DNA from: an uncultured Holophagae bacterium
GTDB lineage: Bacteria > Acidobacteriota > Thermoanaerobaculia > Thermoanaerobaculales > Sulfomarinibacteraceae
DNA: 64,000 bases
Direction of reading: 5' to 3'
NCBI GenBank assembly: GCA_963710645.1
Contig: CAVQBD010000009.1
Coordinates: 1,551,199 to 1,615,198, forward strand
Below are positions 4,417 to 30,771 of this stretch, one piece after another. The position numbers were made by a program, and so were the translations under genes. Numbering within the stretch: the first letter of the stretch is position 1; every line of letters starts with the position of its first letter. The notes beneath the pieces are model-generated. The model saw only the letters and a list, made by a program, of their open reading frames with translations. It ran no database searches and was not told the DNA's origin.

Positions 4417-4492
4417 ACGATCGGTTTGGGGGATCGGTCGTGCGAACTGAACGGCCCGGTTTGGGCCATGAACCAAGGAGAGGGAGGTAGCA

Positions 4493-7192: not shown

Positions 7193-7208
7193 GGAAACGA
7201 GAAACATC

Positions 7209-9235: not shown

Positions 9236-10578
9236 ATCCGTTCAGGTTTCTCGCCACCGGGGCGGATAAACCGCTGCTGGAGGATCAGGGCCTGATTGAC
9301 CGGCTGTACAAACGGCACCGATTGCGCATCATGCTGGCGATCACAATCGGATACGGCCTGGTCTACACTTGTCGTCTGGCGCTCTCGGTGGTCAAGAAAC
9401 CGCTGATCGATGGCGGCATCTTCACGCCGGAGCAGCTCGGGACAATCGGTTCCGCCCTGTTTTACACCTATGCCTTCGGAAAACTCACCAACGGGTTTCT
9501 CGCGGACCACGCCAACCTGAAATTGTTTTTTGCGGTCGGTGTGCTCGGTTCGGCGTTTCTGAACCTCGGCATGGGCTTCTCCACCGTGATGTGGGCTTCG
9601 GTGTTGCTGTGGGCCCTCAACGGCTGGTTCCAGGGATTCGGCGCACCCTCCGGTGCGGTGGCCATGGCCAGCTGGTTTTCAAACCGCGAACGGGGGAGGA
9701 TCTACGGCATCTGGAGCACCGCCCACGCCATCGGCGAGGGGCTCACCTTTGTGGGCGTGGCTGCGGTGGTGGCGATGTGGGGATGGCGTGCGGGTTTCTG
9801 GGCGCCGGGCCTGATGTGCATTTTCGTGGCCGGAGCCCTCTATCTGCTCATGCAGGATCGTCCACGCACCATGGGTTTGCCCGCAGTGGCCGACTGGAAG
9901 GATGACCACTGGAGCGGAGCGGAGGGTGCGGATGCCGAAAAGGGCACCTGGACGACCCAGCGCTCCATCCTGAAGATCCCCGCCATCTGGGTGCTCGCCC
10001 TGTCGAGCGCTTCGATCTACGTCACCCGCTATGCCATCAACAGCTGGGGCGTGTTGTATCTCCAGGAGGCCAAGGGCTACTCCCTGCTTCAGGCGGGCAG
10101 CGTCATCTCGGTCAACACCCTGGCCGGGATCATCGGTGCGGTGGCCTTCGGCTTCTCCTCGGACAAGATCTTCAAGGCGCGGCGACCGCCCACCAACGTG
10201 ATCTTCGCCGTCATCGAGCTTGTGGGTCTGGGGCTGATCTTCTTCGGTCCCAGCGGCCGTCCGGCCTTCATGACCTTCGCCTTCTTCATCTACGGCTTCG
10301 GCTTGACGGGGCTGATCACGTCGCTCGGCGGGCTCTTCGCGCTCGACATCGCGCCGAAGCGCGCCGCCGGGGCGGCCATGGGTTTCATCGGGGTCTTTTC
10401 CTACCTGGGTGCTGCGATCCAGGACCAGATCAGCGGCTACCTGATCGGCCAGGGAAGCACCATCGTGGACGGTGTGCGGTATTACGACTTCAGCAGTGTG
10501 ATCGTTTTCTGGGTTGGCTCGTCCATCGTATCGGCGGTTCTGGCGACCACCCTCTGGCGAGTCAAGTTACGGGACTGA
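9232..10578 (+). CDS. MFS transporter, organophosphate:Pi antiporter (GlpT/UhpC-like) family
   Basis: Track ORF 9001..10578 trimmed to the GTG at 9232 (GTGA overlap with the upstream stop). The product is multi-TM. The N-terminal RLRIMLAITIGYGLVYTCRLALSVVKKPL resembles OPA-family signature regions. Confidence 0.75.
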   Translation: MNPFRFLATGADKPLLEDQGLIDRLYKRHRLRIMLAITIGYGLVYTCRLALSVVKKPLIDGGIFTPEQLGTIGSALFYTYAFGKLTNGFLADHANLKLFFAVGVLGSAFLNLGMGFSTVMWASVLLWALNGWFQGFGAPSGAVAMASWFSNRERGRIYGIWSTAHAIGEGLTFVGVAAVVAMWGWRAGFWAPGLMCIFVAGALYLLMQDRPRTMGLPAVADWKDDHWSGAEGADAEKGTWTTQRSILKIPAIWVLALSSASIYVTRYAINSWGVLYLQEAKGYSLLQAGSVISVNTLAGIIGAVAFGFSSDKIFKARRPPTNVIFAVIELVGLGLIFFGPSGRPAFMTFAFFIYGFGLTGLITSLGGLFALDIAPKRAAGAAMGFIGVFSYLGAAIQDQISGYLIGQGSTIVDGVRYYDFSSVIVFWVGSSIVSAVLATTLWRVKLRD

Positions 10579-10587
10579 GGAACCTCA

Positions 10588-11541
10588 ATGAGCAACCGAC
10601 AGACGATATACGACGTTGCAGCGATCGGAAACTACACAAAGGACACGGTGGTCCACCCGGCGGGGACTCGCCAGGTCGACGGCGGAGGCGTTCGCTACGC
10701 GGCCTATGCGGCCGCCGGCCTCGGCTGTCGCGTCGCGGCCCTCACCAGGCTCGCCCACGAGGATGCCCGGGTTGTGGCTGATCTCGAGCAGGCCGGGGTC
10801 GACGTCTTCCCCGTCTTCACCTCGGATTCGACTCAGATGCGGCTCGAGTATCCCACCACCGACCCCGACCAGCGGACTCTCACGGCGGCCACCACCGCCG
10901 GGTCGTACACCGTGGAACACGTCGATTCAGTTGCGGCCCGCAGCTATCTGATCACCGCCTCCATTCGGGGCGAGGTTCCTGTGGAGGTTGTTCGCCGGCT
11001 TCGGGCGACCGGAGCCACCATCGCCCTCGACGTCCAGGGCTTTGTCCGCATCCGCCAGCCCGACGGGAGACTCGTGCACGCAGAGTGGCCTGACGCGTCC
11101 CTCGTACTTTCAATGGTGGACATCCTCAAGACCGATGCTGTGGAAGCCGAGTCGCTGACCGGTGAGTCGGACCCGGAAATCGCGGCGCGGCAGCTGGCCG
11201 AGCTGGGCCCGACCGAGGTGCTCGTCACCCATCGGGACGGGCTGCTCGTGCTCGCCGACGGCACGATTCATGAAGCTCGATTCCATCCCAAGGAAATGGT
11301 GGGCCGCAGTGGACGCGGCGACACCTGTCTGGGGTCGTACACCGCGGCGAGACTGGGCGTTGAGCCCGCGGAGGCCACCATCTGGGCGGCCGCGATCACC
11401 AGCCTCAAGATGGAGTCGGACGGTCCATTCCACCGAGGGATCGCCGAGGTGGAGGATCTTCTGCAACGAGAGTACGGACTGGTTCCGGGTGGACCCCCGG
11501 TTCCTGCCCCAATACCAACGGGGAACAATGCCGGGGCGTGA
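10588..11541 (+). CDS. PfkB-family carbohydrate kinase
   Basis: 317 aa. PfkB C-terminal signature region GRSGRGDTCLGSY. Occupies the same position as the kinase in Thermotoga-type iol clusters. Confidence 0.8.
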   Translation: MSNRQTIYDVAAIGNYTKDTVVHPAGTRQVDGGGVRYAAYAAAGLGCRVAALTRLAHEDARVVADLEQAGVDVFPVFTSDSTQMRLEYPTTDPDQRTLTAATTAGSYTVEHVDSVAARSYLITASIRGEVPVEVVRRLRATGATIALDVQGFVRIRQPDGRLVHAEWPDASLVLSMVDILKTDAVEAESLTGESDPEIAARQLAELGPTEVLVTHRDGLLVLADGTIHEARFHPKEMVGRSGRGDTCLGSYTAARLGVEPAEATIWAAAITSLKMESDGPFHRGIAEVEDLLQREYGLVPGGPPVPAPIPTGNNAGA

Positions 11542-11574
11542 ATCCCCGAGCTGACGAAATGGAGGAAGAAGTCC

Positions 11575-12732
11575 ATGAAAGGTATGGTTCTTGACGCGAA
11601 GTGGGATCCCAAGGCGGACTACACGGTATCGGATTGGGAGAAGGAGACGGGGAAGGCCATCACGGGAAACGCCATCTGGAGAAATCCGACGCTCGAGGTG
11701 CGTGACTGGCCCGATCCCGAACCGGGACCACAGGAGGTCGTGCTCGCGATCCAGGCCTGTGGTGTCTGCGGTTCGGATATGCACTTCTATGAGACCGATG
11801 ACCAGGACTACATCCTGTATCCCGGACTGACCAAATTTCCGACCATCCTCGGCCACGAGTTCTCGGGCAAGGTGGTGGCGACCGGGAAAGACGTCAAGCT
11901 TCTCAAGATCGGCGACATGGTGACCGTGGAGGAGATGATCTGGTGCGGCCGTTGTATTCCGTGTCGCAACGGATATCCCAACCACTGCAGCAATCTGGAA
12001 GAGATCGGTTTCACGATTCCGGGTGCGTTCGCGAATTTTATCGCCGTGGACGAAAAATTCTGTTGGAAGATCGACGCCATCGCCGAACGGTACGGTAGCG
12101 AAGAAAAGGCCTATGCCGTGGGTGCACTCACCGAGCCCACCTGCGTCGCATACAACGCCATGATCGAACGGGCCGGCGGATTCCGTCCCGGCCACTATGT
12201 GAACGTGGTTGGTGCGGGTCCCATCGGGCTCGCGGCCATCGGGATCGCCAAGGCGGCCGGTGCCGGCATCATCGCGGCATTCGAGGTTTCCCCGAAACGG
12301 CGCGAGCTGGCCAAGCTGGTGGGCGCGGATTACGTCTACGACCCTCGAGAGGTCAGCACCGGTGAGGTGCTGATGGAGCTCAGCGGCGGCGCGGGCTTCG
12401 ATTTTCACGTCGAGGCCGCAGGGGTCCCGGAGATCGCGATTCCCGAGATGGAGAAGGCGCTGGCCATCAACAGCAAGATCGTCCAGATCGGTCGTGCGGC
12501 CAAGCGAGTGCCGACCTATTTCGAGGCCTTCCAGGTCCGCCGCGCCCAGGCGTACGGGGCGCAAGGGCACTCGGGTCACGAGACCTTCCCCAACGTCATC
12601 CGCATGGTGGCCTCGGGGCGTCTCGATCTCAGCCCCATCATCACGGCGCACTACGGTCTTGACCAGACCGTCGCCGCCATCGCGAAATCGGTGGAACGGT
12701 CCGACGGCAAAATCATGGTGAACCCGAACTAG
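11575..12732 (+). CDS. iolM: Zn-dependent MDR alcohol dehydrogenase, scyllo-inosose 3-dehydrogenase (IolM)-like
   Basis: 385 aa. CGVCGSDMHFYE Zn-ligand region, GHEFSGKVV, GAGPIGLAA Rossmann. The iolM assignment rests on gene context and my recollection of the T. maritima pathway. Confidence 0.6.
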   Translation: MKGMVLDAKWDPKADYTVSDWEKETGKAITGNAIWRNPTLEVRDWPDPEPGPQEVVLAIQACGVCGSDMHFYETDDQDYILYPGLTKFPTILGHEFSGKVVATGKDVKLLKIGDMVTVEEMIWCGRCIPCRNGYPNHCSNLEEIGFTIPGAFANFIAVDEKFCWKIDAIAERYGSEEKAYAVGALTEPTCVAYNAMIERAGGFRPGHYVNVVGAGPIGLAAIGIAKAAGAGIIAAFEVSPKRRELAKLVGADYVYDPREVSTGEVLMELSGGAGFDFHVEAAGVPEIAIPEMEKALAINSKIVQIGRAAKRVPTYFEAFQVRRAQAYGAQGHSGHETFPNVIRMVASGRLDLSPIITAHYGLDQTVAAIAKSVERSDGKIMVNPN

Positions 12733-12762
12733 TCACCGAGACGAGGAATCCGGGAGTCGAGT

Positions 12763-13803
12763 ATGGACGAGTTGCGTGTCGCAGTCGTTGGCGTGGGTCG
12801 CATCGGGCTGACCCATGCCGAGCACCTGGCCCGGCGGGTGCGCGGTGCGCGGCTCGTCGCTGTCACCACGTCACGGGCTGACCGCACCGACGCAGTTCGA
12901 GCGGTCTGCTCAGACGTGGCGGTCTACCCTACCACCGAGTCCATGCTGAAGAACGAGGGCCTCGACGCGGTGGTCATCGCCAGCAGTACGTCGGCCCATG
13001 TGGACAACGTCGTGCAGTGCTCGGAAGCCGGGCTGCACATTCTGTGCGAGAAGCCCCTGTCCCTCGATCTCGATGGCTGCGACCGAGCGGTGTCGGCCGC
13101 CGATGCCGCAGGCGTGAAACTGATGATCGGTCACGTCCGCCAGTTCGATTCCGGCAACCTCGAAGCCAAGAAATTGATCGACGGGGGCGCCATTGGCCGA
13201 CCGGTGCTCTACCGGTCCATCAGCGGTGATATGGACCCGCCGCCGGCCAGCTTCGCCGACCTCGGCGTCAGTGGTGGTCTGATCCTGGACTCCATGTACC
13301 ACGACATCTACCTCGGACGCTGGCTCATGGACGACGAGGTGGTCCGTGTTTTCGGCGAAGGTGGTGCCCTGATAGATGACGGTGTGCGGTCGGTGGGAGA
13401 CGTGGACAATGCGGTGGTCAGCCTCCGGTTCGAAGGCGGTTCCATGGGGACCCTCACCGCCAGCCGAGTCACCAGGTACGGCCATGATGTGCGAGGCGAA
13501 GTGATCGGCGACGAAGGAGCGGTCCAGATCGGCCGTTATCGCCACACTCCGGTGCGGCTCATGGACCGCCATGGCATCCATCACGACATGGCCCACACCA
13601 CACCCGAGAGGATGGGTGAGGCCTTCGTCACCATGTTGCAGGCCTTTGTGGATTGCATCGTCGACGACACCCCACCTCCGGTCAACGGCCGGGACGGGGC
13701 GGCGACGCTGACGGTGGCCCTTGCAGGTCGCCGGTCGATCCAGACCGGCCAACCGGTCGAGGTTGAAACAAAAACAAGGCCGTCATCTGGCGGCAAAACA
13801 TAG
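12763..13803 (+). CDS. Gfo/Idh/MocA-family oxidoreductase, inositol dehydrogenase-like (paralog 3)
   Basis: 346 aa. VAVVGVGRIGLTHA and ILCEKPLS. Confidence 0.8.
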   Translation: MDELRVAVVGVGRIGLTHAEHLARRVRGARLVAVTTSRADRTDAVRAVCSDVAVYPTTESMLKNEGLDAVVIASSTSAHVDNVVQCSEAGLHILCEKPLSLDLDGCDRAVSAADAAGVKLMIGHVRQFDSGNLEAKKLIDGGAIGRPVLYRSISGDMDPPPASFADLGVSGGLILDSMYHDIYLGRWLMDDEVVRVFGEGGALIDDGVRSVGDVDNAVVSLRFEGGSMGTLTASRVTRYGHDVRGEVIGDEGAVQIGRYRHTPVRLMDRHGIHHDMAHTTPERMGEAFVTMLQAFVDCIVDDTPPPVNGRDGAATLTVALAGRRSIQTGQPVEVETKTRPSSGGKT

Positions 13804-13836
13804 AGCTCTCGAAAGAAGCGAGAGAAGGAGCATCAC

Positions 13837-14961
13837 ATGGCAAACGCCCCAGAAGATCCACGGTTGCTGGCCACCGATCAGCCGGATCTGTTCTTCGAGG
13901 ACAACACGGTTGGACGGTGCAAGAAAGAAGTTTGGGACGCGAGCGACGCGGAGATCGACCAGATCCTCGCCGATTACGGGATTCCGTCCCCCTGCGAGTG
14001 GGGCAAGGCCGGGTCCTATATCCAGACCACGGTGCGCCACCAGGTCGAGGCCGAGCGTCGGAAAAACGACATCGTCTTCATCCCCATAGGCTGCACCGAG
14101 CTCCACGGCCGCCACCTCCCGAGCGCCTCTGACACCCTCTATGTCAGTCAGATCCTCGAGGGTGTGCGACGTTTCACCGCCAAGAGCGGGGCTCCGGCGA
14201 GTCTCGCGCTGCCGCCGCTCAACTACGGCTCCCACCCCTATCATCATCTGGGAATGCCGGGCACGGTCATCATCCGCGAGAACATCGCCCGCGAGTTCCT
14301 CATGGATGTCATGCTGGGCCTCTGGAACGACGGTTTCCGAAAGCAGATCCTGATCAACAACCACGGTCATCTGTGGATGCTCGAGTCGGCCATCCAGCAG
14401 TTCCAGAAGCGCTACCAGCTGCCGGGCGTCTTCCGCGTCATCGACTGGCACCGGGCGGTCCGCGAGTTCTTCCGGACCGAGCCCAAGGGCGGCAAGATGG
14501 ACACCAATTTCGTCCACGCCGACGAGTCGGAGACGTCACTCGGTCTGCTGCTCCATCCCGATATGGTGGATATGGACTATGCGGTGGACACCGAGGGCAT
14601 AGGCTACCTGCCGGATGGGCACTTCGACAAGTCGGTGGATCCCTTCAGCCGGCCGAGCCGCTGGTCCGAGGGAGAGGGCCACTTCGCCATCGAGATCGCC
14701 GCGACTCCCGAGGGGGTGGTCGGTAAGGCCACCCGGGGCACCGCCGAAAAGGCCAAACGACCGGTCGCCGCAATCCTCAAGTATCTGACCCTGCTCAACG
14801 ACCAGATCCTCGAAGCCTTTCCGGCGGGCACCGTGCCACCGGTGGAGATGGTCACCCTCCGCACCGAGGCCGAGATGGAGCCCTATCTCCGCGAGCCCTT
14901 GAGTGATGGATGGAAGCCGGTCTATCAGCTGCCGCGGATCGGTCAGGGATCAAACTCGTAG
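13837..14961 (+). CDS. iolN: Creatininase-superfamily hydrolase, 3-dehydro-scyllo-inosose hydrolase (IolN)-like
   Basis: 374 aa. Creatininase-family motifs IPIGCTELHGRHLP and HADESETS. The iolN call is by context. Confidence 0.6.
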   Translation: MANAPEDPRLLATDQPDLFFEDNTVGRCKKEVWDASDAEIDQILADYGIPSPCEWGKAGSYIQTTVRHQVEAERRKNDIVFIPIGCTELHGRHLPSASDTLYVSQILEGVRRFTAKSGAPASLALPPLNYGSHPYHHLGMPGTVIIRENIAREFLMDVMLGLWNDGFRKQILINNHGHLWMLESAIQQFQKRYQLPGVFRVIDWHRAVREFFRTEPKGGKMDTNFVHADESETSLGLLLHPDMVDMDYAVDTEGIGYLPDGHFDKSVDPFSRPSRWSEGEGHFAIEIAATPEGVVGKATRGTAEKAKRPVAAILKYLTLLNDQILEAFPAGTVPPVEMVTLRTEAEMEPYLREPLSDGWKPVYQLPRIGQGSNS

Positions 14962-14971
14962 GACAACTACG

Positions 14972-15775
14972 ATGAAACTCAGCGTCGTGCTGTCAACCCA
15001 CGCCGCCGCCTTCCAGGCGGTGGCATTCAAGGGCGATTTCGAGGCCAACGTGGCCAAGATCGCCGGTTGGGGTTATGACGGTGTCGAACTCGCCGTGCGG
15101 GATCCAAATTTGGTGAACGCCGGCGAGCTCGAACGCGTCATCACCTCGCAGAATCTGGTCGTGCCCGCCATTGGCACCGGTCAGGCGTGGGGCGAGGAAG
15201 GACTTTCGTTCACCAGTGACGATGGGACGGTTCGGGCCGCAGCCATCGACCGAATCATCAGCCATATCCCGTTGGCCGAGCACCTGGACGCCATCGTGAT
15301 CTTGGGCCTGATTCGCGGTGTCACACCGGAGGGTCAGACCCACGATCAATCCATGGCCCACCTGGTGGAGGCCATCCGCGAATGCGCCGTGGCCGCCGAG
15401 GGGACCGGGGTGCGATTCGCATTGGAGCCAATGAACCGCTACGAAACTGACCTCATTCACTCGGCGGCGCAAGGGCTGGATCTGGTGGAGAGGGTGGGTC
15501 GAGACAACTTTGGATTGTTGCTCGACACCTTTCACATGAATATCGAGGAGCCCTCCATCGAGGAGAGCATCCGACTCTGCGGCGAGCGGATCTTCCATTT
15601 TCACGTGGCGGACTCGAACCGCTGGTACCCCGGAGCCGGGCATCTCGATTTCTCCTCGATTCTGCAGACTCTTGCCGAAACGGGCTTCGGCGGCTTTGTA
15701 TCCGGTGAATTCATGCCGCTGCCCGACGCCGATTCATCAGCCCAACGCGGCATTGCTCACTTGAGGAGCCTGTGA
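14972..15775 (+). CDS. iolO: Xylose-isomerase-like TIM-barrel sugar(-phosphate) isomerase/epimerase, 5-keto-L-gluconate epimerase (IolO)-like
   Basis: Track ORF 14903..15775 trimmed to the ATG at 14972 (MKLSVVLSTHA), 10 nt after the upstream stop. FALEPMNRYET and LLDTFHMNIEE are typical AP-endonuclease-2/TIM-barrel metal-site blocks. Confidence 0.65.
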   Translation: MKLSVVLSTHAAAFQAVAFKGDFEANVAKIAGWGYDGVELAVRDPNLVNAGELERVITSQNLVVPAIGTGQAWGEEGLSFTSDDGTVRAAAIDRIISHIPLAEHLDAIVILGLIRGVTPEGQTHDQSMAHLVEAIRECAVAAEGTGVRFALEPMNRYETDLIHSAAQGLDLVERVGRDNFGLLLDTFHMNIEEPSIEESIRLCGERIFHFHVADSNRWYPGAGHLDFSSILQTLAETGFGGFVSGEFMPLPDADSSAQRGIAHLRSL

Positions 15776-15814
15776 CACACGGACTGTGGGCGGCCGGCTG
15801 AACGGAGACAGTCT

Positions 15815-17290
15815 ATGAACCCGTTGGCGACTCTCGCAGGGGTGGACGATCTCGAAGTCGCACCCAGCTCCATTGTCGAGGCACAGGGCACAACCTACGC
15901 TCTGGCGACGCGCGACAACTCGAAATTCGTGGTGGTCCTCGGCGATTCGAGCGGTTTCGAGGGAGAAGATCACCGACCGGGCGGTGTACGTCTGTCTCCG
16001 GTGAGTCCATCCACACTGTCCGGGCTTCGGATGCGTCTGCCGTGGCTGCTGCCGGTTCCATTGGGGCTTCGCACCTCATTTGGTTTCGGTGACAGGCTCG
16101 GGCTCGCTACACCCGGGCACATCCGGTCCCTCCGGTCTCTCCGTGGAGCAACCCACGGCATCGCGCCCATCTTCGCCCAACAGTCGGTTCGGGAGAATTT
16201 TCGCACCGGCCGCACTCCCCGACAGGTGATGGACGATGCCGCCTGGGCGGTCTTCGAGCACGGTTGGCGCGACCCGTGGGGTGCCGATGCCGACCATCTC
16301 AAGACACCGGACGACGCCTCGAAATTCGCAGCCGCCGGCTTCACCTTCTTTACCATTGATCCGGGCGAGCATGTGGATGACGATGTGGACGCGGCCAATT
16401 TGGAGGCCAAGGTTCGAGGCCTGCCGTGGAGCTCCCTCGAGGACACCGTGGAGGATTTCGAAAGACGGTTCCTGTCTTCCCCCTTCGACCTCGAGGGCAC
16501 CTCGGTGCCATTCGACCGGGCATCGCTGTGGGGAGCCGCCGCAAAGTATGGCCGTGCTGTTGCGCACACGGCTGAGATGTATCGCCACATCGCTGCGATC
16601 ATGGAGGACCGGCCTTTCGAACTCGAGGTTTCGGTGGACGAGACCGACAGTCCGACCAGCGTGCCGGAACACATCTACATCGCGAGCGAACTGCGGCGGC
16701 TGGGGGTGCGCTGGGTGAGTCTGGCGCCCCGGTTCGTGGGACGGTTTGAAAAGGGTGTCGACTACATAGGCGACCTCGAGGAGTTCTCACGACAATTCGC
16801 TAAGCACGCTGCCGTCGCTCGCCAATTGGGACCATACAAGCTGAGCCTGCACTCTGGATCGGACAAGTTCAGCATCTACCCGGTTGCCAGTCGGCTGACC
16901 CGTCACGGTGCGAGGTCCCCCGGTCCGCTGGTCCACGTCAAGACCGCGGGAACCAGCTTCTTGGAGGCCCTGCGGGCCGTCGCCCGTGTCGATCCGGATC
17001 TGTTTCGGAGCGTCCTCGCCCTGGCGAAGGAGCGATACGAAAAGGACAAGCTGACCTACCACGTGTCGGCTGATCTTGCTCGGGTGGCCTCGCCCGAGGA
17101 CCTCGACGATTCGGAGCTCGAGGGTCTGCTCGAGCAGTTTGATGCTCGAGAGGTACTCCACGTGACCTTTGGATCCGCGCTGGATCGGTATGGCGATCCA
17201 ATCCGCGCGACCCTCGTGGAAAACAAGCAGGCGTATTCCGATGTGCTCACCTCGCACTTCGCCAAACACCTCGCGGATTTTGTGGATTGA
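15815..17290 (+). CDS. uxaE: Tagaturonate/fructuronate epimerase (UxaE)-like protein
   Basis: 491 aa. The size and the blocks SFGFGDRLGLATPGH and GADADHLK match my recollection of the UxaE family. Lies directly downstream of the IolO-like gene. Confidence 0.5.
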   Translation: MNPLATLAGVDDLEVAPSSIVEAQGTTYALATRDNSKFVVVLGDSSGFEGEDHRPGGVRLSPVSPSTLSGLRMRLPWLLPVPLGLRTSFGFGDRLGLATPGHIRSLRSLRGATHGIAPIFAQQSVRENFRTGRTPRQVMDDAAWAVFEHGWRDPWGADADHLKTPDDASKFAAAGFTFFTIDPGEHVDDDVDAANLEAKVRGLPWSSLEDTVEDFERRFLSSPFDLEGTSVPFDRASLWGAAAKYGRAVAHTAEMYRHIAAIMEDRPFELEVSVDETDSPTSVPEHIYIASELRRLGVRWVSLAPRFVGRFEKGVDYIGDLEEFSRQFAKHAAVARQLGPYKLSLHSGSDKFSIYPVASRLTRHGARSPGPLVHVKTAGTSFLEALRAVARVDPDLFRSVLALAKERYEKDKLTYHVSADLARVASPEDLDDSELEGLLEQFDAREVLHVTFGSALDRYGDPIRATLVENKQAYSDVLTSHFAKHLADFVD

Positions 17291-17394
17291 GGAGGATTTC
17301 GAGATGTGTCGCCCGATGCGCCGTGGGCCGTTTTATGGATCTCCGGCCGTTGGGCCTTTGTGATCGCTGAATTTCCCTGACCCCGGGGGACGAT

Positions 17395-18699
17395 ATGACC
17401 ATTGGAACGAGCAGCACAGCCCGCCCCCTCACCCAAAGCGAGGTTCGCGGCATCATGGCCGAAGCTCTAGACCATCTCGAGCTGGATGGTCAGCGGATAT
17501 TGGTCATCATTCCCGATGGGACCCGTACCGCGCCCATCCCCCTCATGAGGCGTCTGTTCAGTGAGTTGCTTGGTTCACGGGTCGAAAAAATCGACTACCT
17601 TGTGGCCCTCGGAACCCACCCACCCATGGACGACGGCGCCCTGTCCCGTCTACTGGGCACCAAGGTGCTCGACGGCAAGGCTGGATCTTCGAGGGTCTTC
17701 AACCATCGATGGGATGTGGAAGAGACCTTTGTCACCCTGGGCACGGTGCCCGCCGCCGAGGTGGCTGCAGCCAGCGGCGGCCGACTCGAGCTCGACATTC
17801 CGGTGCGCCTCAATCGGTTGGTGGGCGAGCCGGACGGTTCGAGCCCCTATGATTTGATCGTGGTCTGCGGCCCGGTATTCCCCCATGAGGTCGCGGGATT
17901 TTCCGGCGGAAACAAGTACTTCGTGCCCGGGGTCGCGGGCCCCGAGATCATCAACGTGACCCACTGGATCGGGGCCCTGGTCACCAGCCGCGAGATCATT
18001 GGCGTCGCCGACACCCCGGTGCGGCGGCTGATCGATCGCGCGGCGTCCCATGTTGCAACCCCCACCCTGTTGGTGGCCATGGTGCTCGAGGGCACATCGC
18101 TCCACGGGCTCTTCGTCGGTGGGATGGAGGAGACCTGGCGTGCTGCCGCGAGGTTGTCGGCCGAGCTGGACATCGAATGGGTCGACAAGCCCTTTGAAAG
18201 GGTGCTGTCCATGGTGCCCGAGATGTATGACGATCTGTGGACCGGCGCCAAGGGTATGTACAAGCTCGAACCCGCCATCGCCGATGGCGGCGAGGTGGTG
18301 GTCTACGCGCCGCACATCACCGAGGTCTCTTATGTCCACGGGCGGTGGCTGGACGAGATCGGTTACCACGTCCGAGATTACTTCGTCGAACAGTGGCATC
18401 GATTTATGCATGTGCCCTGGGGCGTGATCGCCCACTCCACCCATCTCCGGGGCGACGGCAGCTTCATCGACGGCGTCGAGCGGCCACGGATCCGGGTGAC
18501 TCTGGCCACCGGAATCCCGCGGGAGCGCTGCGAGTCCATCGGTCTCGGCTACCTGGACCCCGCGACGGTGGACCCGGAGGAATGGGCCGGGCGGGAGGAG
18601 GAGGGCGTGATGCTGGTTCGAAGGGCCGGCGAACGGCTGTACCGACTGAAAGAGGAGATCCCGGCGACGAGACTTTCCAGTTCACAGGAGGGGAACTGA
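17395..18699 (+). CDS. LarA-family (nickel-pincer-cofactor dependent) 2-hydroxyacid racemase/epimerase homolog
   Basis: 434 aa. DUF2088/LarA N-terminal pattern ILVIIPDGTRTAP. FPHEVAGFSGGNKYFVPG carries the His and the Lys that tethers the cofactor in LarA. Confidence 0.75.
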   Translation: MTIGTSSTARPLTQSEVRGIMAEALDHLELDGQRILVIIPDGTRTAPIPLMRRLFSELLGSRVEKIDYLVALGTHPPMDDGALSRLLGTKVLDGKAGSSRVFNHRWDVEETFVTLGTVPAAEVAAASGGRLELDIPVRLNRLVGEPDGSSPYDLIVVCGPVFPHEVAGFSGGNKYFVPGVAGPEIINVTHWIGALVTSREIIGVADTPVRRLIDRAASHVATPTLLVAMVLEGTSLHGLFVGGMEETWRAAARLSAELDIEWVDKPFERVLSMVPEMYDDLWTGAKGMYKLEPAIADGGEVVVYAPHITEVSYVHGRWLDEIGYHVRDYFVEQWHRFMHVPWGVIAHSTHLRGDGSFIDGVERPRIRVTLATGIPRERCESIGLGYLDPATVDPEEWAGREEEGVMLVRRAGERLYRLKEEIPATRLSSSQEGN

Positions 18700-18730
18700 C
18701 AGGCCGGCACGGACCTATCAGGCCTGAGGA

Positions 18731-18772
18731 AGAAAATGAGAAATGAGAAATGAAAAATGAAGGACGTGAAAA
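18731..18772. repeat. Heptamer-periodic tandem array (AGAAAAT GAGAAAT GAGAAAT GAAAAAT ...)
   Basis: About 6 units of 7 nt, read directly, in the 159-bp gap between the LarA-like gene and phoD. Confidence 0.8.
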
Positions 18773-18858
18773 TCGAGACTCGGATTTCGGGACTCGTAAA
18801 TGTCTGATAACGAGAATGTGGTGGTGGCCAATGAGCCATCACCTGTGGAAGGTTTGAC

Positions 18859-20298
18859 ATGAGATTATCCTCCGTTGTTTCGCGATGCGTAATGCTCTCG
18901 CTGATTGTTTTCACCCTGACGTCACCCGCACTGGCCGCGTCGCGGGACGACGATGGGTACCCGAGGCTGATGCAGGGTCCAATGGTGGGGACCGTGACTC
19001 CTACCGAGGCACATATCTGGCTTCGAACCACGGGCGAGTATGTCGTCACCATCGAGTACGGCACCGGCTTCGAACTTCGATCGGCTCTCACCACCGAACC
19101 GGTGACGGCGAGCAAGACTGCGGACTACACGCTGGTGGTGACGATCCCAGATCTCCAACCCGCCACCGAGTACTTCTACCGCGTACTGGTCGACGGCCAG
19201 GGCGACAAATATCTCGAGGAATATCCGCCGTTCCGATTCAAGACCGCACCGGCCCCGGGAACCAGCGCCAGCTTCAGGGTCGGCTTCGGTTCCTGTCCCA
19301 AATACCAGGATGACCGGATGCAGCCGATCTGGCCGGTCATCTCGGGATTCGAACCGGATCTGTTTTTCTGGATTGGGGACAACATCTACGGCGACACCCT
19401 CGACCCGGACATCCTGCGTGAGGAGTACCGCCGCCAGCGCGATGTCCCCGGGTTGCAACCCCTGCTGCACAACACCTCGCACCTCGCCGTCTGGGATGAT
19501 CATGATTTCGCGCTCAACAACCACGATCGAACCAACCCCATCAAGGACCGGGCGCTCGAGGTGTTCAAGGACTACTGGGCCAACCCTGCCTACGGACTGC
19601 CCGATGTACCGGGTGTGTTCTACAGCTACAGCTTCGGCGACGTTGATTTCTTTTTCATCGACGATCGCTATTACCGGGATCCCAACTCGGATCCGGACAC
19701 CCCGGAGAAGACCATGTTGGGACCCGCCCAGTTTGACTGGCTGCTCGAGCGGTTGTCGGCGAGCACAGCGGTCTTCAAGGTGATCGTATCGGGAAGCGGC
19801 TTCAGCAAGGCCAAGGGCGAGGGCGGCGACTCGTGGGCCGCGTTTCTCAACGAACGGAACAGGCTTTTTGACTTCATTCGGGACGAGGAGATCAGCGGCG
19901 TGGTCCTGCTGACGGGCGACTCCCACGTGGGCGAACTCAACGTGATTCCGTGGTCGGAGCGGGGCGGCTACGATCTCTACGATCTCGTGAGTTCGCCACT
20001 GGCCCAGCGCAACCCGGATTCATGGCTGCACCGGAGACCCGAGCGGCGCATCCGTCCGGTGTACTTCAGGGGAAGCAGTGTCGGCGTGGTGGACTTTCTG
20101 CTCGATGATCCGCCACGCTTGATGTACCGCATCATCGACATCCACGGCCGCAACGTCTGGGAGCCATTCGTTGTGCGGGCGGACGAGCTGGTCAACGGCG
20201 TGACATCCTGGCCCGATAAGGTCCACAGCGATTCCAGACAACGCCAGGAGAACTACGATGCTGGCAAGGGCTATTACGAGATCGAGGCGGAGGACTAG
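18859..20298 (+). CDS. phoD: PhoD-family alkaline phosphatase/phosphodiesterase, secreted
   Basis: 479 aa. Signal peptide. FWIGDNIYGD, AVWDDHDF and LLTGDSHVGE metallophosphatase blocks typical of PhoD. Confidence 0.85.
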   Translation: MRLSSVVSRCVMLSLIVFTLTSPALAASRDDDGYPRLMQGPMVGTVTPTEAHIWLRTTGEYVVTIEYGTGFELRSALTTEPVTASKTADYTLVVTIPDLQPATEYFYRVLVDGQGDKYLEEYPPFRFKTAPAPGTSASFRVGFGSCPKYQDDRMQPIWPVISGFEPDLFFWIGDNIYGDTLDPDILREEYRRQRDVPGLQPLLHNTSHLAVWDDHDFALNNHDRTNPIKDRALEVFKDYWANPAYGLPDVPGVFYSYSFGDVDFFFIDDRYYRDPNSDPDTPEKTMLGPAQFDWLLERLSASTAVFKVIVSGSGFSKAKGEGGDSWAAFLNERNRLFDFIRDEEISGVVLLTGDSHVGELNVIPWSERGGYDLYDLVSSPLAQRNPDSWLHRRPERRIRPVYFRGSSVGVVDFLLDDPPRLMYRIIDIHGRNVWEPFVVRADELVNGVTSWPDKVHSDSRQRQENYDAGKGYYEIEAED

Positions 20299-20301
20299 CC
20301 G

Positions 20302-21504
20302 GTGACAAACAATTGCCATTGCCGTGGGTTTCGCGGCTCCTTTGCTGGTTCACTCGTCGTTCATCTGACGGTGCTGACGCTCGTCCTCATGGCAGGCGGG
20401 CTGGGCGCTGAAGCGGCGGAATCTCCGGACGGGGAACTGGTCTTCATCGTTGCCGCGGACATGAGGAACTTCGCCGCGGACGGTGTGTGGTCAAAGAATT
20501 TCTCGGGCGCGTGCGAGGCGGTGAAAAAGGTCGGTGCGGGTTCCTTCATGGTCAGTCCGGGTGACCTCGATGTGGATCCGCCGTCGGCGGTCAGGGACAT
20601 GGTGAGTACGGTCCTCGGCGACGACTATCCGTGGTACCCCATCCTCGGCAACCACGACCCCGAGTCTCCTTCCACCATGAAGTACCTGCGCGAGTACAGC
20701 CAGAGTGTGCCCAACGTGGTGAATCGGGGGCCAAAGGGTTGTGAGGCCACCACCTATTCCTTTGACTGGTCGAACGTCCACTTCGTGGTGCTCAATCAGT
20801 ATTTCGACGGCGTCAAGGACTGGGGTGTCGAGGGTGACGTGGTTCCCGATCTATTGGAGTGGCTCGAGGCGGATCTGGCCGCCAACACAAAGGACCGCGT
20901 CTTTGTCCTCGGACACGAGCCGCTGATCGTCATGCCCGACATGGACAACGGGCGGATCCGCCACCAGGGCAACTCCCTCGACGAGCACCCGGAGAACATG
21001 TTCCAGTTCCTCAAGTTATTGAAGGAGTACGAAGTTGTGGCCTATATCTGCGGTCACACCCACAACACCTCCTATTCGAACATCAACGGCGTGTGGCAGC
21101 TCGATGCAGGTCACGCCCGGGGCCTCGAGGAGGCCTCTTACGCCGACCGAATGTACGCCGCCATCTCCGCAGCGATCGAGACCGGACGGGCCCATGGCGT
21201 CGGCGAGGCGGAGTCCATCAGGCAACTGTATAGAGACGACGCCTATCACGTGGACTATTGGTTCAAATACCTGGGGCTGGCGGGCCAACCTGTGGTTCAA
21301 ACCATGGCCCAGTTCTACGACGAGTACGGTACCGACCCCGGTGCACGAGACCGGTACTACGAAGCTCAGATCAAGGGCCGGGGCCAGACCCCAAGCACGT
21401 TTTTGAAAGTCACGGTGGGCGCGGCGAAGGTCACGGTGGATTTTTATCGCGACGACGCACATGGCGGGCCATACACTCTGCGAGAGACCCTCATTCTGGA
21501 TTGA
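20302..21504 (+). CDS. Calcineurin-like metallophosphoesterase, secreted
   Basis: 400 aa, GTG start. Signal/TM segment. SPGDLD, GNHD, VLGHEP and CGHTHN motifs. Confidence 0.8.
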   Translation: MTNNCHCRGFRGSFAGSLVVHLTVLTLVLMAGGLGAEAAESPDGELVFIVAADMRNFAADGVWSKNFSGACEAVKKVGAGSFMVSPGDLDVDPPSAVRDMVSTVLGDDYPWYPILGNHDPESPSTMKYLREYSQSVPNVVNRGPKGCEATTYSFDWSNVHFVVLNQYFDGVKDWGVEGDVVPDLLEWLEADLAANTKDRVFVLGHEPLIVMPDMDNGRIRHQGNSLDEHPENMFQFLKLLKEYEVVAYICGHTHNTSYSNINGVWQLDAGHARGLEEASYADRMYAAISAAIETGRAHGVGEAESIRQLYRDDAYHVDYWFKYLGLAGQPVVQTMAQFYDEYGTDPGARDRYYEAQIKGRGQTPSTFLKVTVGAAKVTVDFYRDDAHGGPYTLRETLILD

Positions 21505-23604
21505 GTGAATCCGTACGACGGGTATGTGATGGTAGACACCGACACGAATCAAGCGCTGATCAGGTTCGGGCGAGTGGCGTTGATCGTGACGGTGTTCATA
21601 TTTCTCAGCCCAATTCTCGCCGTCGCGATGGAGCTCGAAGGCGTGCGTCTCAGCTCGAAACCGACGATCGATGGCGTTGTGGACGAGGCTGTGTGGTCAG
21701 AGGCGGCGGTTGCCGAGGGATTCGTTCAGTTTGTGCCCAAGTTCGGACAACCCTCTCCATATCGAACGGTGGTCCTCGTGGGCTCCACCGAGGATGCCCT
21801 GTACGTCGCCTTCAAGTGCTTCGATCCCGAGTCGAAGGACATCTCCGCCGCGGTGACGTCTCGTGATGGTTCCCTAGAAAATGATGACTCTGTCGCCCTC
21901 CTCCTCGATACCTTCCACGACCAGCGGAGGGCCTACTACTTCATCACCAACACCCTCGGGGTTCAGGGGGATGGCAAGGTGGCCGACAACGGTCGGGTGG
22001 TGGAGAACGAGTGGGATGGGACGTGGGAGTGCGCCTCCAGCAGATCGGCGGACGGCTGGACGAGCGAGTTCGCGATTCCATTCAGGATGCTCCGCTTCAG
22101 CGGTGGTGAAGACACTACCTGGGGCATTAATTTTCACAGATACGTCCCCCGCCGGCTCGAGACATCGGTGTGGTCGGGTCCCGGGGAGTCGGAGTGGCGG
22201 GTCTCGAGTTTCGGGCAACTGACGGGGCTCGATCTTCGAACCACGGAAGCCAAGAAGTACGCCATCATCCCTTACGGGCTTGCGGTGGTGGAGAAGGGCC
22301 AGGAGCCCCATTACGAGGCGGGGGTAGATCTCAGGTTTCGGATTGCCCAGGGGCTGAGCGCCGATCTGACGTTGAATCCCGACTTCGCCCTCGTGGAAGC
22401 CGATGTGGAGCAGATCAACCTCACCAGATACGAGCTCTTTGTTCCGGAAAAAAGACCCTTCTTCCTTGAAGGCAACGAGATGTTCGATCAGCGGATCCGT
22501 CAGTTCTACAGCCGGCGGATCGGCGACATCGATTGGGGCGGCAAGCTCACCGGCAATGTGTTGGGCTTCGACGTGGCCGCCATCGCCTCGGTGGCCGATC
22601 TCCATCCGGATGAAGATCTCGAAAACGTGGACGATTCGGCGGACTACGCCGTGGTGCGTCTCCAGCGGGGGATTTTCGGCGGCTCGACGGTGGGGCTACT
22701 GGCGGCGAACCGTAGCGTCGGCTCGGACCGAGCCGGGTCCTTTGGCCTGGACACGACCCTCTTCTTCACCGAAACCATCGGCATGACAGCCCAATTTCTC
22801 CGCTCCCACGGGCCCGAGCACGACGGTGCCCAGGGTTGGTTTCTGAGACCGGCATATGACTCGGCCAACTCCCATTTTCACATCAGGTACACCAACCTCG
22901 ATGTGGGTCTCAAGGACAACGTCAACGCGATCGGTTTTTTGGAGGACGACGACCGCAAGGAGTTCGACACCGAAGTCAAACACATTTTTTGGTTCGAGAG
23001 CAGTGCGTTTGAGAGGCTCGAGGGCAAGATCAACTACAACCGCTTCTGGAGTCAGGACGGGATCCTGAGGAGCTGGGAGCTGGAATCCGATGTGGAGATC
23101 GTATTCACGAACTTCTGGCAGGTCGAGCTTTCCTACGTGGATGCCTACGAGCTCTTTGAAAAGGAGTACCGTAACTCAATCACTAGCCTGCAGGTGGGCT
23201 GGGACAACCGGGCCGGCAAGTTCTTTGCCGTCGAGGTGGGGACCGGAAAGAACTTCGACTCGGATCTGAGGCTGGCGACCCTCGAGACGGGGCTCATCCT
23301 GTTCAGCGCGCTGGATCTGTCATACGAGGCCACCTGGCTCGATCTCGACCCGGACCCGGAGAACGAGAGCACGTGGATCCATGTCTTCCGGGTGAACTAC
23401 CACTTCACGAACGACCTCTATGTCAATCTCTTCTGGCAGACAAACTCGGTCATCCAGAAGGAGAACATCCAACTCCTCGCCGTGTGGCGATTCATGCCTC
23501 CGTTCGGGTCGCTCCAGGTGGCATATCAGCGCGGGACCTCGGAGATCGGGACCCCGTCGGATCAGGGAGACTCGCTCTTCACGAAGTTGCAGTGGGTGTT
23601 CTGA
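21505..23604 (+). CDS. DUF5916 / carbohydrate-binding-family-9-like outer-membrane-associated protein
   Basis: 699 aa. The start is uncertain: GTG at 21505 or ATG at 21529. N-terminal KPTIDGVVDEAVWSEA...FVQFVPKFGQP is typical of CBM9-like/DUF5916 proteins. The C-terminal part is beta-rich and ends in F. Confidence 0.6.
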   Translation: MNPYDGYVMVDTDTNQALIRFGRVALIVTVFIFLSPILAVAMELEGVRLSSKPTIDGVVDEAVWSEAAVAEGFVQFVPKFGQPSPYRTVVLVGSTEDALYVAFKCFDPESKDISAAVTSRDGSLENDDSVALLLDTFHDQRRAYYFITNTLGVQGDGKVADNGRVVENEWDGTWECASSRSADGWTSEFAIPFRMLRFSGGEDTTWGINFHRYVPRRLETSVWSGPGESEWRVSSFGQLTGLDLRTTEAKKYAIIPYGLAVVEKGQEPHYEAGVDLRFRIAQGLSADLTLNPDFALVEADVEQINLTRYELFVPEKRPFFLEGNEMFDQRIRQFYSRRIGDIDWGGKLTGNVLGFDVAAIASVADLHPDEDLENVDDSADYAVVRLQRGIFGGSTVGLLAANRSVGSDRAGSFGLDTTLFFTETIGMTAQFLRSHGPEHDGAQGWFLRPAYDSANSHFHIRYTNLDVGLKDNVNAIGFLEDDDRKEFDTEVKHIFWFESSAFERLEGKINYNRFWSQDGILRSWELESDVEIVFTNFWQVELSYVDAYELFEKEYRNSITSLQVGWDNRAGKFFAVEVGTGKNFDSDLRLATLETGLILFSALDLSYEATWLDLDPDPENESTWIHVFRVNYHFTNDLYVNLFWQTNSVIQKENIQLLAVWRFMPPFGSLQVAYQRGTSEIGTPSDQGDSLFTKLQWVF

Positions 23605-23635: not shown

Positions 23636-24421
23636 TCAGATCGTCATCGCCGTGAAACCGCCGTCCACCCGGATGACGGTGCCGGTGACAAAGGACGAGG
23701 CCTTTTCAGATGCGAGCCACACCACCGCGCCGGCAAGCTCCTCGGGCTCGCCAAATCTTCCCATGGGGGTGTGGCCCATGATGGACGCCACCCGCTCCTC
23801 GGTGAGGATCTTGCGGTTTTGTTCGGCGGGGAAGAACCCGGGTGCCACGGCGTTGACCCGCACGCCATGGGGCGCCCACTCGCGGGCCAGGAATTGGGTG
23901 AGGTTGTTGACCCCGGCCTTGGTGATGGAGTAGGTGTAGACCTTGCTCAGCGGCGGCCCGGACGAGGCCGACGAGATGTTGATCACCGAGCCGCCGTCGC
24001 CCTGGTCGACCATCCGGCCGCCGAAGATCTGACACGCAAGATGCATGCTGGTGAGATTGACCCGTAGGATCCGCTCCCATTCATCAAGAGTGATGTCGAA
24101 GAATGGGGTGGCCGAATTGATCCCCGGAGCGTTGAGCAGGATGTCCACCCGGCCCCACTCCGACACCACCTGGTCGCAGGCGCGGCGAAGATCGATCTCG
24201 CTTGTGGCGTCCACCTGGAGGTCGATGGCATCGGTGCCGTTGGCGTCGCGGATGCTCCTGGCTCGCTCCTCGGCCGCGCCGGCATCCAGGTCCAGCACCG
24301 CGACTTTGGCCCCTGCTTTTCCGAGGGCCTCAGCCATGGCCCCGCCCAGAACTCCGCCCGAGCCGATGGTCACCGCCACCTTGCCAACAAGTGAGAACAT
24401 TTCACTGATGTACATGCTCAT
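23636..24421 (-). CDS. Short-chain dehydrogenase/reductase (SDR)
   Basis: Track ORF 23636..24592 trimmed to the ATG at 24421, which has GGGAG 6 nt upstream. TIGSGGVLGG cofactor motif, YSITKAG catalytic YxxxK. Confidence 0.85.
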   Translation of the reverse strand: MSMYISEMFSLVGKVAVTIGSGGVLGGAMAEALGKAGAKVAVLDLDAGAAEERARSIRDANGTDAIDLQVDATSEIDLRRACDQVVSEWGRVDILLNAPGINSATPFFDITLDEWERILRVNLTSMHLACQIFGGRMVDQGDGGSVINISSASSGPPLSKVYTYSITKAGVNNLTQFLAREWAPHGVRVNAVAPGFFPAEQNRKILTEERVASIMGHTPMGRFGEPEELAGAVVWLASEKASSFVTGTVIRVDGGFTAMTI

Positions 24422-24666
24422 GGTTGACTCCCGGCCCGATCCATTGAACGTTGAAAGGGATGATGGCCCTGGTGGGTCCCGCTGACCTTGTCCCAGGGCG
24501 TGATCGCTCAACCATTCTAGGGCAAGGTCGGGCATACCAGAAGGGCTGCCCTCGGGGAGATGACCAACCACTCCGGTCATTTCTAGATTCATTGTGATGA
24601 ATGCCGAGAAACGGAGCCGGGAAGACCTATTATGGACCGGTGAAATCGACAGCGTTGGACGGGAAC

Positions 24667-26174
<1,508 letters not shown>

Positions 26175-26178
<4 letters not shown>

Positions 26179-29895: not shown

Positions 29896-30657
29896 TCAGG
29901 CAGCACTTTGGGAATCAGATTCGTGGGGCGTGGATACATTTTTCAAAAAACGACCTCGCTCGGCGATGAAATCGGTGACCGCATCGACCACCGAGGGATC
30001 CCGCAAGATCCGACGGTGCCCAAGCCCCTCGGTGGTGTGCATTACCGCCTCGGGCAACGAATGGGCGAGGTGTCTTCCCTCGCTCCACTGAATTTCTGGG
30101 TCGCTGTGGTCATGGATGATCAGGCTGTCGTTGTGCAGCTCCGATGCGAGCCGCCACGGCTCCACATCGTTCCATTGGAAGTTGAAGCGACGTTCCAGCC
30201 GCCGTCGCATACGCTCGACAACGTCCGGGCTGAAGCCCGTCATCTCACCGAACCAATCGGTCAAGGCTGTGGTGCGAGCGGCAGGTGCCAACAACACCAG
30301 ACGGTCGGCGGCCAAACCACGTCGACTCGCTCCAAGGAGGACCGCCGCAGCACCCAGAGAGTGCCCGACAACTCCGGCGAACGGGCCGTACTCCTTGGCC
30401 ACCGCCATCAGTCCGTCGGTGTGGCGGAAGAGATTGGATGTGTGACCAGGGGCTGCGCCGTGGGCCGGTGCGTCGTAGGCCACCACGCGGTATCCGGCAG
30501 CCGCGAGGGATGCGGCGAACGCACCGAGTTGGAGACCCCGCCCGGTCCACCCGTGCACCAGCAGCACGGTGTGTGGACCTTCGCCCCACACCCAAACCGG
30601 AAGAGCGCCGTGCGGCGAGACTCTTTCTTCACGGCGGGCGCCGGTGGCCCAGTCCAA
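29896..30657 (-). CDS. Alpha/beta-fold hydrolase
   Basis: 253 aa. VLLVHGWTGRG and nucleophile elbow GHSLGAAA. Confidence 0.8.
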   Translation of the reverse strand: MDWATGARREERVSPHGALPVWVWGEGPHTVLLVHGWTGRGLQLGAFAASLAAAGYRVVAYDAPAHGAAPGHTSNLFRHTDGLMAVAKEYGPFAGVVGHSLGAAAVLLGASRRGLAADRLVLLAPAARTTALTDWFGEMTGFSPDVVERMRRRLERRFNFQWNDVEPWRLASELHNDSLIIHDHSDPEIQWSEGRHLAHSLPEAVMHTTEGLGHRRILRDPSVVDAVTDFIAERGRFLKNVSTPHESDSQSAA

Positions 30658-30771
30658 CTCCCGACGGGGGGTGCGTGAGCGCAGCGAGGTGGTGAACAGC
30701 CGTTCGGCCAGCCACGCCGCAACCGCTGGCGCCCATGTGCTGAGAAGGGCGAATGATCTGTTGATATTGGG

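Follow-up and report, generated by a model that had tools for sequence, protein, structure and literature searches.

Two LarA homologs (LarAH), GntE1 of Corynebacterium glutamicum and GntE2 of Thermotoga maritima, catalyse D-mannonate/D-gluconate epimerisation that depends on nickel-pincer nucleotide (NPN) as its cofactor (PMC7583248), and a third enzyme of the same branch, LarAH15, converts D-mannonate to D-gluconate with NPN at 111 s-1 and has no lactate activity (PMC11770544). In T. maritima, gntE lies in the operon aldH-pelB-gnd-uxaRED-gntEK (PMC3750489), and GntE has been proposed to give D-mannonate access there to the pentose phosphate pathway (Rodionova 2012, as quoted in PMC7583248 and PMC3750489). 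Here, we describe a LarA-superfamily gene at positions 17395-18699 (forward strand) of a 64,000-nucleotide stretch of DNA, called the window below, from an uncultured Holophagae bacterium of the phylum Acidobacteriota (assembly GCA_963710645.1, contig CAVQBD010000009.1, positions 1,551,199 to 1,615,198). The gene stands in an inositol operon, directly after uxaE. We conclude that its product is very probably an NPN-dependent 2-epimerase of the hexonate type, belonging to the GntE branch. With moderate confidence, we further infer both its substrate and the direction of the reaction, the conversion of D-mannonate to D-gluconate, which would feed the pentose phosphate pathway.

The LarA homolog and its place in group 19

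The open reading frame (ORF) begins with ATG and encodes a product of 434 amino acids; the GC content at its three codon positions (0.67/0.46/0.79) is usual for coding sequence in the window. A Lar_N domain (PF09861) is recognised in the product at 71.6 bits, well past chance at a cutoff of 23.3, and the translation carries both LarA hallmarks named in a preliminary description of this DNA, PDGTR (as part of IIPDGTRT) and VFPHEVAGFSGGNKYF. In a HMMER alignment with Lactiplantibacillus plantarum LarA (6c1w), D41 and R44 correspond to D72 and R75, H75 and H164 to the two catalytic histidines H108 and H174, K174 to the cofactor tether K184, H190 to the Ni ligand H200, and K286 to K298. The spacing between the tether and the Ni ligand, 16 residues, is the same in both proteins, and R44 and K286 occupy the places of Arg75 and Lys298, the carboxylate-binding pair of LarA. 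All of these residues are invariant across 144 aligned homologs, missing only in truncated sequences. Judged from the alignment, the protein retains the full lactate-racemase set of cofactor-binding and catalytic residues; together with the Lar_N domain, this agrees with its earlier description as a LarA homolog of the NPN type.

A search of the PDB matched the protein over its full length to GntE2 (4nar, E 1e-59), while LarA structures were matched at E 1e-5 to 1e-7 only (1.5e-5 for L. plantarum LarA). In the AlphaFold model (pLDDT 87, pTM 0.85), uncertainty is confined to the cofactor loop, residues 167-175, and the C-terminus. Foldseek returned 4NAR as the best PDB match of this model (E 2e-38, TM 0.75-0.77), and every one of its top 19 PDB matches is a LarA-family protein.

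To place the protein among LarA homologs, reference sequences of groups 18, 19 and 20 (Dataset S2 of PMC7583248, Desguin et al. 2020) were compared with it by blastp. Identity was highest with group-19 proteins: 56% with Roseiflexus Rcas_3031, 54% with Nostoc Npun_F5335, 48% with Plabr_2258, 46% with Kfla_5672 and 44%, over about 380 residues, with the characterised C. glutamicum GntE1. Acidobacterium capsulatum ACP_2683 of group 18 shared 30% of its residues with the window protein, and T. maritima GntE2 of group 20 shared 31% (31-32%). In a neighbour-joining tree, the window protein falls inside the group-19 radiation. In Dataset S2 of PMC7583248, the activity signature of group 19 is given as D R H H E V K H V W T A K G L/I A S T H R; GntE1 and the window protein agree at all 20 of these positions, both reading D R H H E V K H V W T A K G I A S T H R. 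Because the blastp identities, the position in the tree and the signature agree, we assign the protein, by sequence, to LarAH group 19 as a new member. The preliminary description had asked where the protein falls among characterised LarA homologs, and the answer is the gluconate-2-epimerase branch.

Two other assignments were considered and rejected. The best NCBIfam model for the protein is that of LarAH group 18 (NF052594), with a score of 189.1 bits at a cutoff of 500. GntE2 scores at the same level (193.5 bits), and therefore the match marks only the wider branch; the cofactor-loop motif of group 18 is also different. Membership of group 20, or orthology with GntE2, is contradicted by the 31% identity and by a signature that differs at 7 of 20 positions; group 19 fits the Dataset S2 comparison.

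The protein belongs to a large family. Database matches numbered more than 8000, the top 120 of which are 69-84% identical to the window protein and mostly metagenomic, and 314 clusters at 50% identity were found with E <= 1e-30. One family member, protein P0145, is a large fusion of 2030 amino acids, in which residues 1105-1544 make up a LarA-homolog domain that is 42% identical to the window protein.

Gene neighbourhood and candidate pathway

The genes around the LarA homolog are listed in Table 1. The gene directly upstream, taken for a UxaE-like gene in the preliminary description, is confirmed as uxaE and ends 104 nt before the LarA-homolog gene. This gap contains, at 17311-17328, a weak hairpin with a T-run behind it; in most relatives the place is held by the gene of a UxaD-like short-chain dehydrogenase/reductase (SDR). 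A 7-nt tandem repeat, AAATGAG, is present in 3.9 copies at 18734-18760, in the exceptionally A-rich 159-nt spacer between the LarA-homolog gene and the PhoD-like gene. A promoter and terminator scan around the LarA-homolog gene gave sites no commoner than in shuffled sequence, and an Rfam scan of the window matched nothing.

Table 1. Genes of the window discussed in the text.
Feature	Position	Strand	Evidence
Beta-propeller phytase	1931-3127	-	Pfam Phytase
LacI-family regulator	3187-4260	-	Pfam LacI/Peripla_BP
TonB-dependent receptor	4493-7192	+	Pfam TonB_dep_Rec/Plug/CarboxypepD_reg
Two tandem IolG inositol 2-dehydrogenases	7209-8240, 8237-9235	+	TIGR04380 395.6, 442 bits, cutoff 355
MFS transporter, UhpC/GlpT organophosphate:phosphate antiporter type	9001-10578	+	NF008661 287 bits; Pfam MFS_1
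PfkB kinase, TM0415 homolog	10588-11541	+	PDB 1vk4/5ysp E ~1e-34
IolM, scyllo-inosose 3-dehydrogenase	11575-12732	+	NF041097 536.4 bits, cutoff 450
IolG-like GFO/IDH/MocA oxidoreductase, third paralog	12763-13803	+	TIGR04380 301.8 bits, below cutoff 355
IolN, 3-dehydro-scyllo-inosose hydrolase (creatininase fold)	13837-14961	+	NF041098 311.4 bits, cutoff 245
IolO, 5-keto-L-gluconate epimerase	14903-15775	+	NF041099 331.8 bits, cutoff 300
UxaE, tagaturonate/fructuronate epimerase	15815-17290	+	PF16257 455.5 bits; PDB 9lhu E 4e-107, 6il9 E 1e-87
LarA homolog, LarAH group 19 (GntE1-type putative D-mannonate/D-gluconate 2-epimerase)	17395-18699	+	Pfam, blastp, signature, tree, fold
PhoD-like phosphatase, metallophosphoesterase, DUF5916 protein	18859-23604	+	Pfam
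SDR oxidoreductase, UxaD-like	23636-24592	-	NF006132 271.3 bits; PDB 1vl8

All genes from the TonB-dependent receptor to the DUF5916 gene (4493-23604) point in the same direction and are presumably co-transcribed. Since IolG, IolM, IolN and IolO, which are encoded together, all exceed their NCBIfam equivalog cutoffs, the operon is predicted to encode an oxidative inositol pathway of the Thermotoga type, ending in D-tagaturonate. The three IolG-type paralogs, two above the cutoff and one below it, may have distinct inositol stereoisomers as substrates or catalyse a further redox step. Two gene starts probably need correction: the IolO family match begins at residue 24, and the start is therefore likely to lie downstream of the overlap with iolN, while the MFS match begins at residue 81 and the gene overlaps iolG by 235 nt, which places its start near 9240.

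The surroundings, at 1317-7192 and 18859-23604, look like an island for the utilisation of phytate or inositol phosphates. A HAD hydrolase gene lies upstream of the operon on the opposite strand, beside the LacI regulator and the phytase; the PhoD-like phosphatase and the metallophosphoesterase would release phosphate from inositol phosphates; and the UhpC/GlpT type of the transporter hints that inositol phosphate, not free inositol, is imported. Pfam scans, which covered all of the approximately 50 plausible (GC3-supported) ORFs of the window, detected no uxuA, no uxuB of the mannitol-dehydrogenase type, and no kdgA, gnd or gntK. Several ORFs of considerable size and coding-type composition were left without a Pfam match (56231-57772 and 29908-30678 on the forward strand, 59902-62163 and 30898-31722 on the reverse strand); the neighbour of the first, at 57857-59368, encodes a B12-binding radical SAM protein.

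In the pathway that we propose, myo-inositol would be oxidised by IolG to scyllo-inosose and by IolM to 3-dehydro-scyllo-inosose, the ring of which IolN would hydrolyse to 5-keto-L-gluconate. Epimerisation by IolO would give D-tagaturonate, and epimerisation by UxaE D-fructuronate, which the UxaD-like SDR would reduce to D-mannonate. The LarA homolog, as the last catabolic enzyme of the pathway, would invert C2 of D-mannonate to yield D-gluconate, and this would be phosphorylated by a kinase and enter the pentose phosphate pathway via 6-phosphogluconate dehydrogenase (Gnd). By analogy with LarA, H75 or H164 would deprotonate the 2-hydroxyl group while the C2 hydride passes to the NPN tethered to Lys174 and ligated by His190; from the resulting 2-keto intermediate, the hydride would be returned to the face opposite the one it left, and the remaining histidine would serve as the acid.

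The top family of the SDR is that of D-mannonate oxidoreductase (NF006132, 271.3 bits, cutoff 281) and its second that of gluconate 5-dehydrogenase (198.5 bits). The best PDB match, 1vl8, is labelled a T. maritima 'gluconate 5-dehydrogenase'; we take this entry to be TM0441, that is, UxaD. The family match starts from about residue 60, and the real protein is therefore probably about 258 amino acids long.

Neighbourhoods of the LarA homolog were compared by tblastn with the window proteins in 29 related loci (numbered with the prefix L), comprising one metagenome contig and 28 reference-genome loci from Acidobacteriota, Chloroflexota, Planctomycetota and Rhodothermales; 26 of them were informative. 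Gnd was found in 19 of the 26, mostly directly downstream of the LarA homolog, and the UxaD-like SDR in 17, mostly directly upstream; SDR orthologs are immediately upstream in 16 related loci. UxaE was near the LarA homolog in 15 informative loci and IolM/N/O in 11-13. UxaE-SDR-LarAH is the gene order in most related loci, and the clustering of the LarA homolog with UxaE, SDR and Gnd spans both Acidobacteriota and Chloroflexota. The module of UxaE, SDR, LarA homolog, Gnd and kinase is complete in L001, L003 and L005, for example; in L001 it is arranged as GntR-UxaE-SDR-LarAH-Gnd-PfkB, beside pectin genes. In the window, UxaE and the LarA homolog are accompanied by a displaced SDR, without gnd and without an assignable hexonate kinase. 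The closest locus, L014, belongs to an uncultured Holophagae metagenome-assembled genome, with 85% identity for the LarA homolog and 89-99% for its neighbours. Adjacent gnd is lacking there as in the window, and the displacement of the SDR to the other strand is found likewise in L004.

Other neighbours recur as well. Synteny of the PhoD-like, metallophosphoesterase and DUF5916 genes extends to several loci from Acidobacteriota and is seen in L002, L004, L006, L007, L014 and L026. In eight loci from Chloroflexota and Planctomycetota, a conserved 299-amino-acid HAD-like protein with a DSDG motif and no NCBIfam match is encoded between the SDR and the LarA homolog (for example, L011:140-1039 and L008:9079-9978). 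Five Chloroflexota loci contain uxaC, and in six loci gnd is followed by a gene of the pyrophosphate (PPi)-phosphofructokinase type (NF010675, 362 bits; for example, L002:12862-14154).

Two candidates for the kinase step within the window were weighed. The FGGY kinase at 24601-26178 was rejected as GntK, being GlpK (780 bits) with glpD behind it; an assignment of the PfkB protein as a gluconokinase is unsupported, this protein being a homolog of TM0415. TM0415 is a PPi-dependent kinase with a Km of 12 mM for myo-inositol, a value that comes with doubt about its true acceptor (PMC5931981). The TM0415-like PfkB is the sole sugar-type kinase of the inositol operon, in the window as in L002, L004 and L014, and could be the missing hexonate kinase on the way to 6-phosphogluconate. 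Together with the gene of the PPi-phosphofructokinase type, it suggests a pyrophosphate-linked phosphorylation in these pathways.

Substrate and cofactor of the LarA homolog

The preliminary description had proposed a mannonate/gluconate link to central metabolism, and this part of it gains support from the relatives, in which the LarA homolog is flanked by the UxaD-like SDR and Gnd. Several observations weigh against D-mannonate as the substrate or leave the route incomplete. The closest relative, L014, has no SDR in its locus. The SDR of the window is separated from the LarA homolog by 5 kb and encoded on the other strand; its score falls just short of the cutoff for D-mannonate oxidoreductase, and it has a likeness to gluconate 5-dehydrogenases as well. 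The 64-kb window contains no 6-phosphogluconate dehydrogenase and no recognisable gluconokinase; it contains no larB, larC or larE either. In addition, GntE1 has a Km of 120 mM for D-mannonate, and the authors of that work suspect group 19 of having a different native substrate, either another isomer or a uronic or aldaric acid (PMC7583248). For the group-19 clade, D-fructuronate or 6-phospho-D-mannonate is in our opinion a possible though unlikely native substrate in place of D-mannonate; either of the two, if true, would settle the question of the physiological substrate of group 19.

If the LarA homolog acted on a keto-uronate, it would convert D-fructuronate (5-keto-D-mannonate) to 5-keto-D-gluconate, which the SDR would then reduce to D-gluconate. 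Stereochemically, the alpha-hydroxy carbon should be the sole point of difference between the two keto acids, just as it is between D-mannonate and D-gluconate; both the second-best family and the best PDB match of the SDR are gluconate 5-dehydrogenases; in the window, the LarA homolog directly follows UxaE with no reductase between them; and the high mannonate Km of GntE1 and GntE2 and the uronic acid suggested for group 19 (PMC7583248) point the same way. Yet D-mannonate oxidoreductase remains the top family of the SDR, most loci keep the order UxaE-SDR-LarAH, three enzymes of the branch are proven on D-mannonate (PMC7583248, PMC11770544), and activity on keto-uronates is without known precedent among LarA homologs, which makes this reaction distinctly unlikely. 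An epimerase of 6-phospho-D-mannonate, which would deliver 6-phosphogluconate straight to Gnd, is suggested by extracts of Lactobacillus suebicus, in which mannonate is phosphorylated first and 6-phosphomannonate is then epimerised by the product of a gene that was not assigned (PMC6978723). No neighbour is better conserved than Gnd, which as a rule comes right after the LarA homolog, the clusters have PfkB kinases or, in Chloroflexota, a PPi-phosphofructokinase-like kinase and no classical gluconokinase, all assayed GntE enzymes have a millimolar Km for free mannonate (PMC7583248, PMC11770544), and the uncertainty about the acceptor of the TM0415-type kinase (PMC5931981) leaves room for such a route. 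We nevertheless regard it as improbable, because free D-mannonate is turned over at 59 s-1 by GntE1 and at 197 s-1 by GntE2 (PMC7583248) and at 111 s-1 by LarAH15 (PMC11770544), the order UxaE-SDR-LarAH prevails among the loci, the gluconate kinase gene of T. maritima comes right after gntE (PMC3750489), and no phosphate-binding feature was identified in the LarA homolog. Were it true, the 2-epimerase of the L. suebicus-type galacturonate pathway, an orphan activity, would acquire a gene, and the TM0415-type PPi kinase would be the matching hexonate kinase.

Racemisation of lactate or of another small 2-hydroxyacid, by an enzyme that stands beside sugar-acid genes by chance, is so improbable as to be nearly negligible. 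The Lar_N domain and the cofactor residues are common to both kinds of enzyme, and relatives are labelled 'nickel-dependent lactate racemase' by JGI; against this, the protein scores 68.8 bits on the lactate racemase model NF033504 (cutoff 460) and does not group with lactate racemases, a possibility that the preliminary description had left standing. The PDB matches to LarA are far weaker than that to GntE2, the substrate loop has E-V where LarA has F-F, W282 and T283 replace Y294 and Q295, LarAH15 of the GntE branch lacks lactate activity (PMC11770544), and synteny with UxaE, SDR and Gnd is kept across two phyla. It is also very improbable that the LarA homolog is an orphan in a genome without NPN biosynthesis, being inactive or working with another cofactor. 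This reading draws on the absence of larB, larC and larE from the window, noticed earlier and confirmed here, and from the 29 related loci (566 kb). In the window, Pfam scans found no LarB (AIRC), LarC (DUF111) or LarE (PP-loop) among the approximately 50 ORFs; tblastn with LarB and LarE of Embleya sp. NBC_00896 gave a best E of 0.83 in the window and the 29 loci; and PP-loop, LarB and LarC motifs detected none of the three genes in either, the search for LarC being by Pfam in the window and by the motif in the 29 loci. As a positive control, the same motifs recovered larB and larE in Embleya, where a group-19 homolog 47% identical to the window protein is flanked by LarE (TIGR00268, 268 bits, cutoff 150), LarB (NF033503, 270 bits, cutoff 175) and UxaC. 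Such genes adjoin no more than 19-33% of the members of group 19 (LarE and LarB 33%, LarC 19%; Table S1 of PMC7583248), and therefore their absence nearby is the condition of the majority and no anomaly. The invariance of the NPN-binding residues throughout a group of this size argues for purifying selection on cofactor use. We therefore retain an NPN-dependent D-mannonate 2-epimerase as the preferred reading, with NPN presumably made from genes elsewhere in the genome.

The Embleya locus (L030, NZ_CP108777.1, positions 7001-13230) has larE, larB and uxaC divergent from the group-19 homolog and a LacI gene downstream of it. The record is 3.1 Mb long, labelled a plasmid and almost unannotated.

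Comparison with known systems

Earlier publications already cover the class of enzyme with the chemistry of its cofactor, the activity as a gluconate 2-epimerase and the idea that mannonate is routed by it to the pentose phosphate pathway (PMC7583248, PMC3750489, PMC6978723). The preliminary description had called such a role a new one, and this does not hold, as it had been proposed for GntE (PMC7583248, PMC3750489). The papers that could be searched contained nothing on a LarA homolog in inositol catabolism, no later work on IolM/N/O and no account of a fused IolG/M/N/O-UxaE-LarAH(-Gnd) cluster. What is new is the coupling of a GntE-type enzyme to the IolG/M/N/O inositol route, a logical extension and an incremental advance. 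On paper, phytate or inositol would pass through 5-keto-L-gluconate, tagaturonate, fructuronate, mannonate, gluconate and 6-phosphogluconate to ribulose 5-phosphate, bypassing the 2-keto-3-deoxygluconate (KDG)/Entner-Doudoroff branch. The coupling gives LarAH group 19, whose sole characterised member binds D-mannonate poorly, a testable physiological setting. The retention of the route in soil Acidobacteriota and Chloroflexota, abundant and mostly uncultured groups, would imply that nickel is needed there for the use of inositol-phosphate carbon.

Among described enzymes, GntE1 (LarAH19) is the nearest, sharing with the window protein not only the 44% identity, the 20-residue signature and the clade but also the cofactor loop GFSGGNKY. 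The settings of the genes differ. GntE1 and other actinobacterial members are found beside uxaC, LacI and dehydrogenases of the mannitol/altronate type, often with larB, larE or larC (PMC7583248), whereas the window gene ends an IolG/M/N/O-UxaE inositol operon, followed in close relatives by gnd. GntE2 (TM0442, group 20, 4NAR) is the best match of solved structure by both sequence and fold, although its signature departs from that of the window protein (an E-S loop, A, G, then A A V I N). Group 18, annotated in NF052594 as 'nickel-dependent putative hexonate epimerase', has the E-V loop and the Trp in common with the window protein; where the latter has GFSGGNKY, group 18 has GMANYNKN or GFANHNKN. 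Its neighbourhoods contain an SDR in 36%, Gnd in 32% and a ribokinase-family kinase in 16% of cases (PMC7583248). L. plantarum LarA (5HUQ/6C1W) shares the fold, the Lys tether, the Ni-ligand His, the catalytic His pair and the Arg/Lys carboxylate binders, but at the substrate contacts the window protein has E-V, W and T in the places of its F-F, Y and Q, and no lar operon surrounds the window gene.

The gnd-uxaRED-gntEK genes of T. maritima form the same functional module (gnd, uxaE, SDR, gntE and kinase) as the loci of the relatives, and L001 reproduces this layout with PfkB instead of an FGGY gluconokinase. The kinase is of the FGGY type in Thermotoga and of the PfkB or phosphofructokinase-like type in relatives of the window gene. 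IolG, IolM, IolN, IolO and TM0415 of T. maritima (Rodionova et al. 2013, cited in PMC5931981 and PMC12632266) all have counterparts in the window. In T. maritima, the inositol operon TM0411-0416 (PMC5931981) is named apart from the pectin operon that carries uxaE and gntE (PMC3750489); here, the two sets of genes make up one cluster. Unlike its T. maritima counterpart, the inositol operon of the window adds uxaE and the LarA homolog, and it is set amid a phytase, phosphatases, a TonB-dependent receptor and an organophosphate antiporter.

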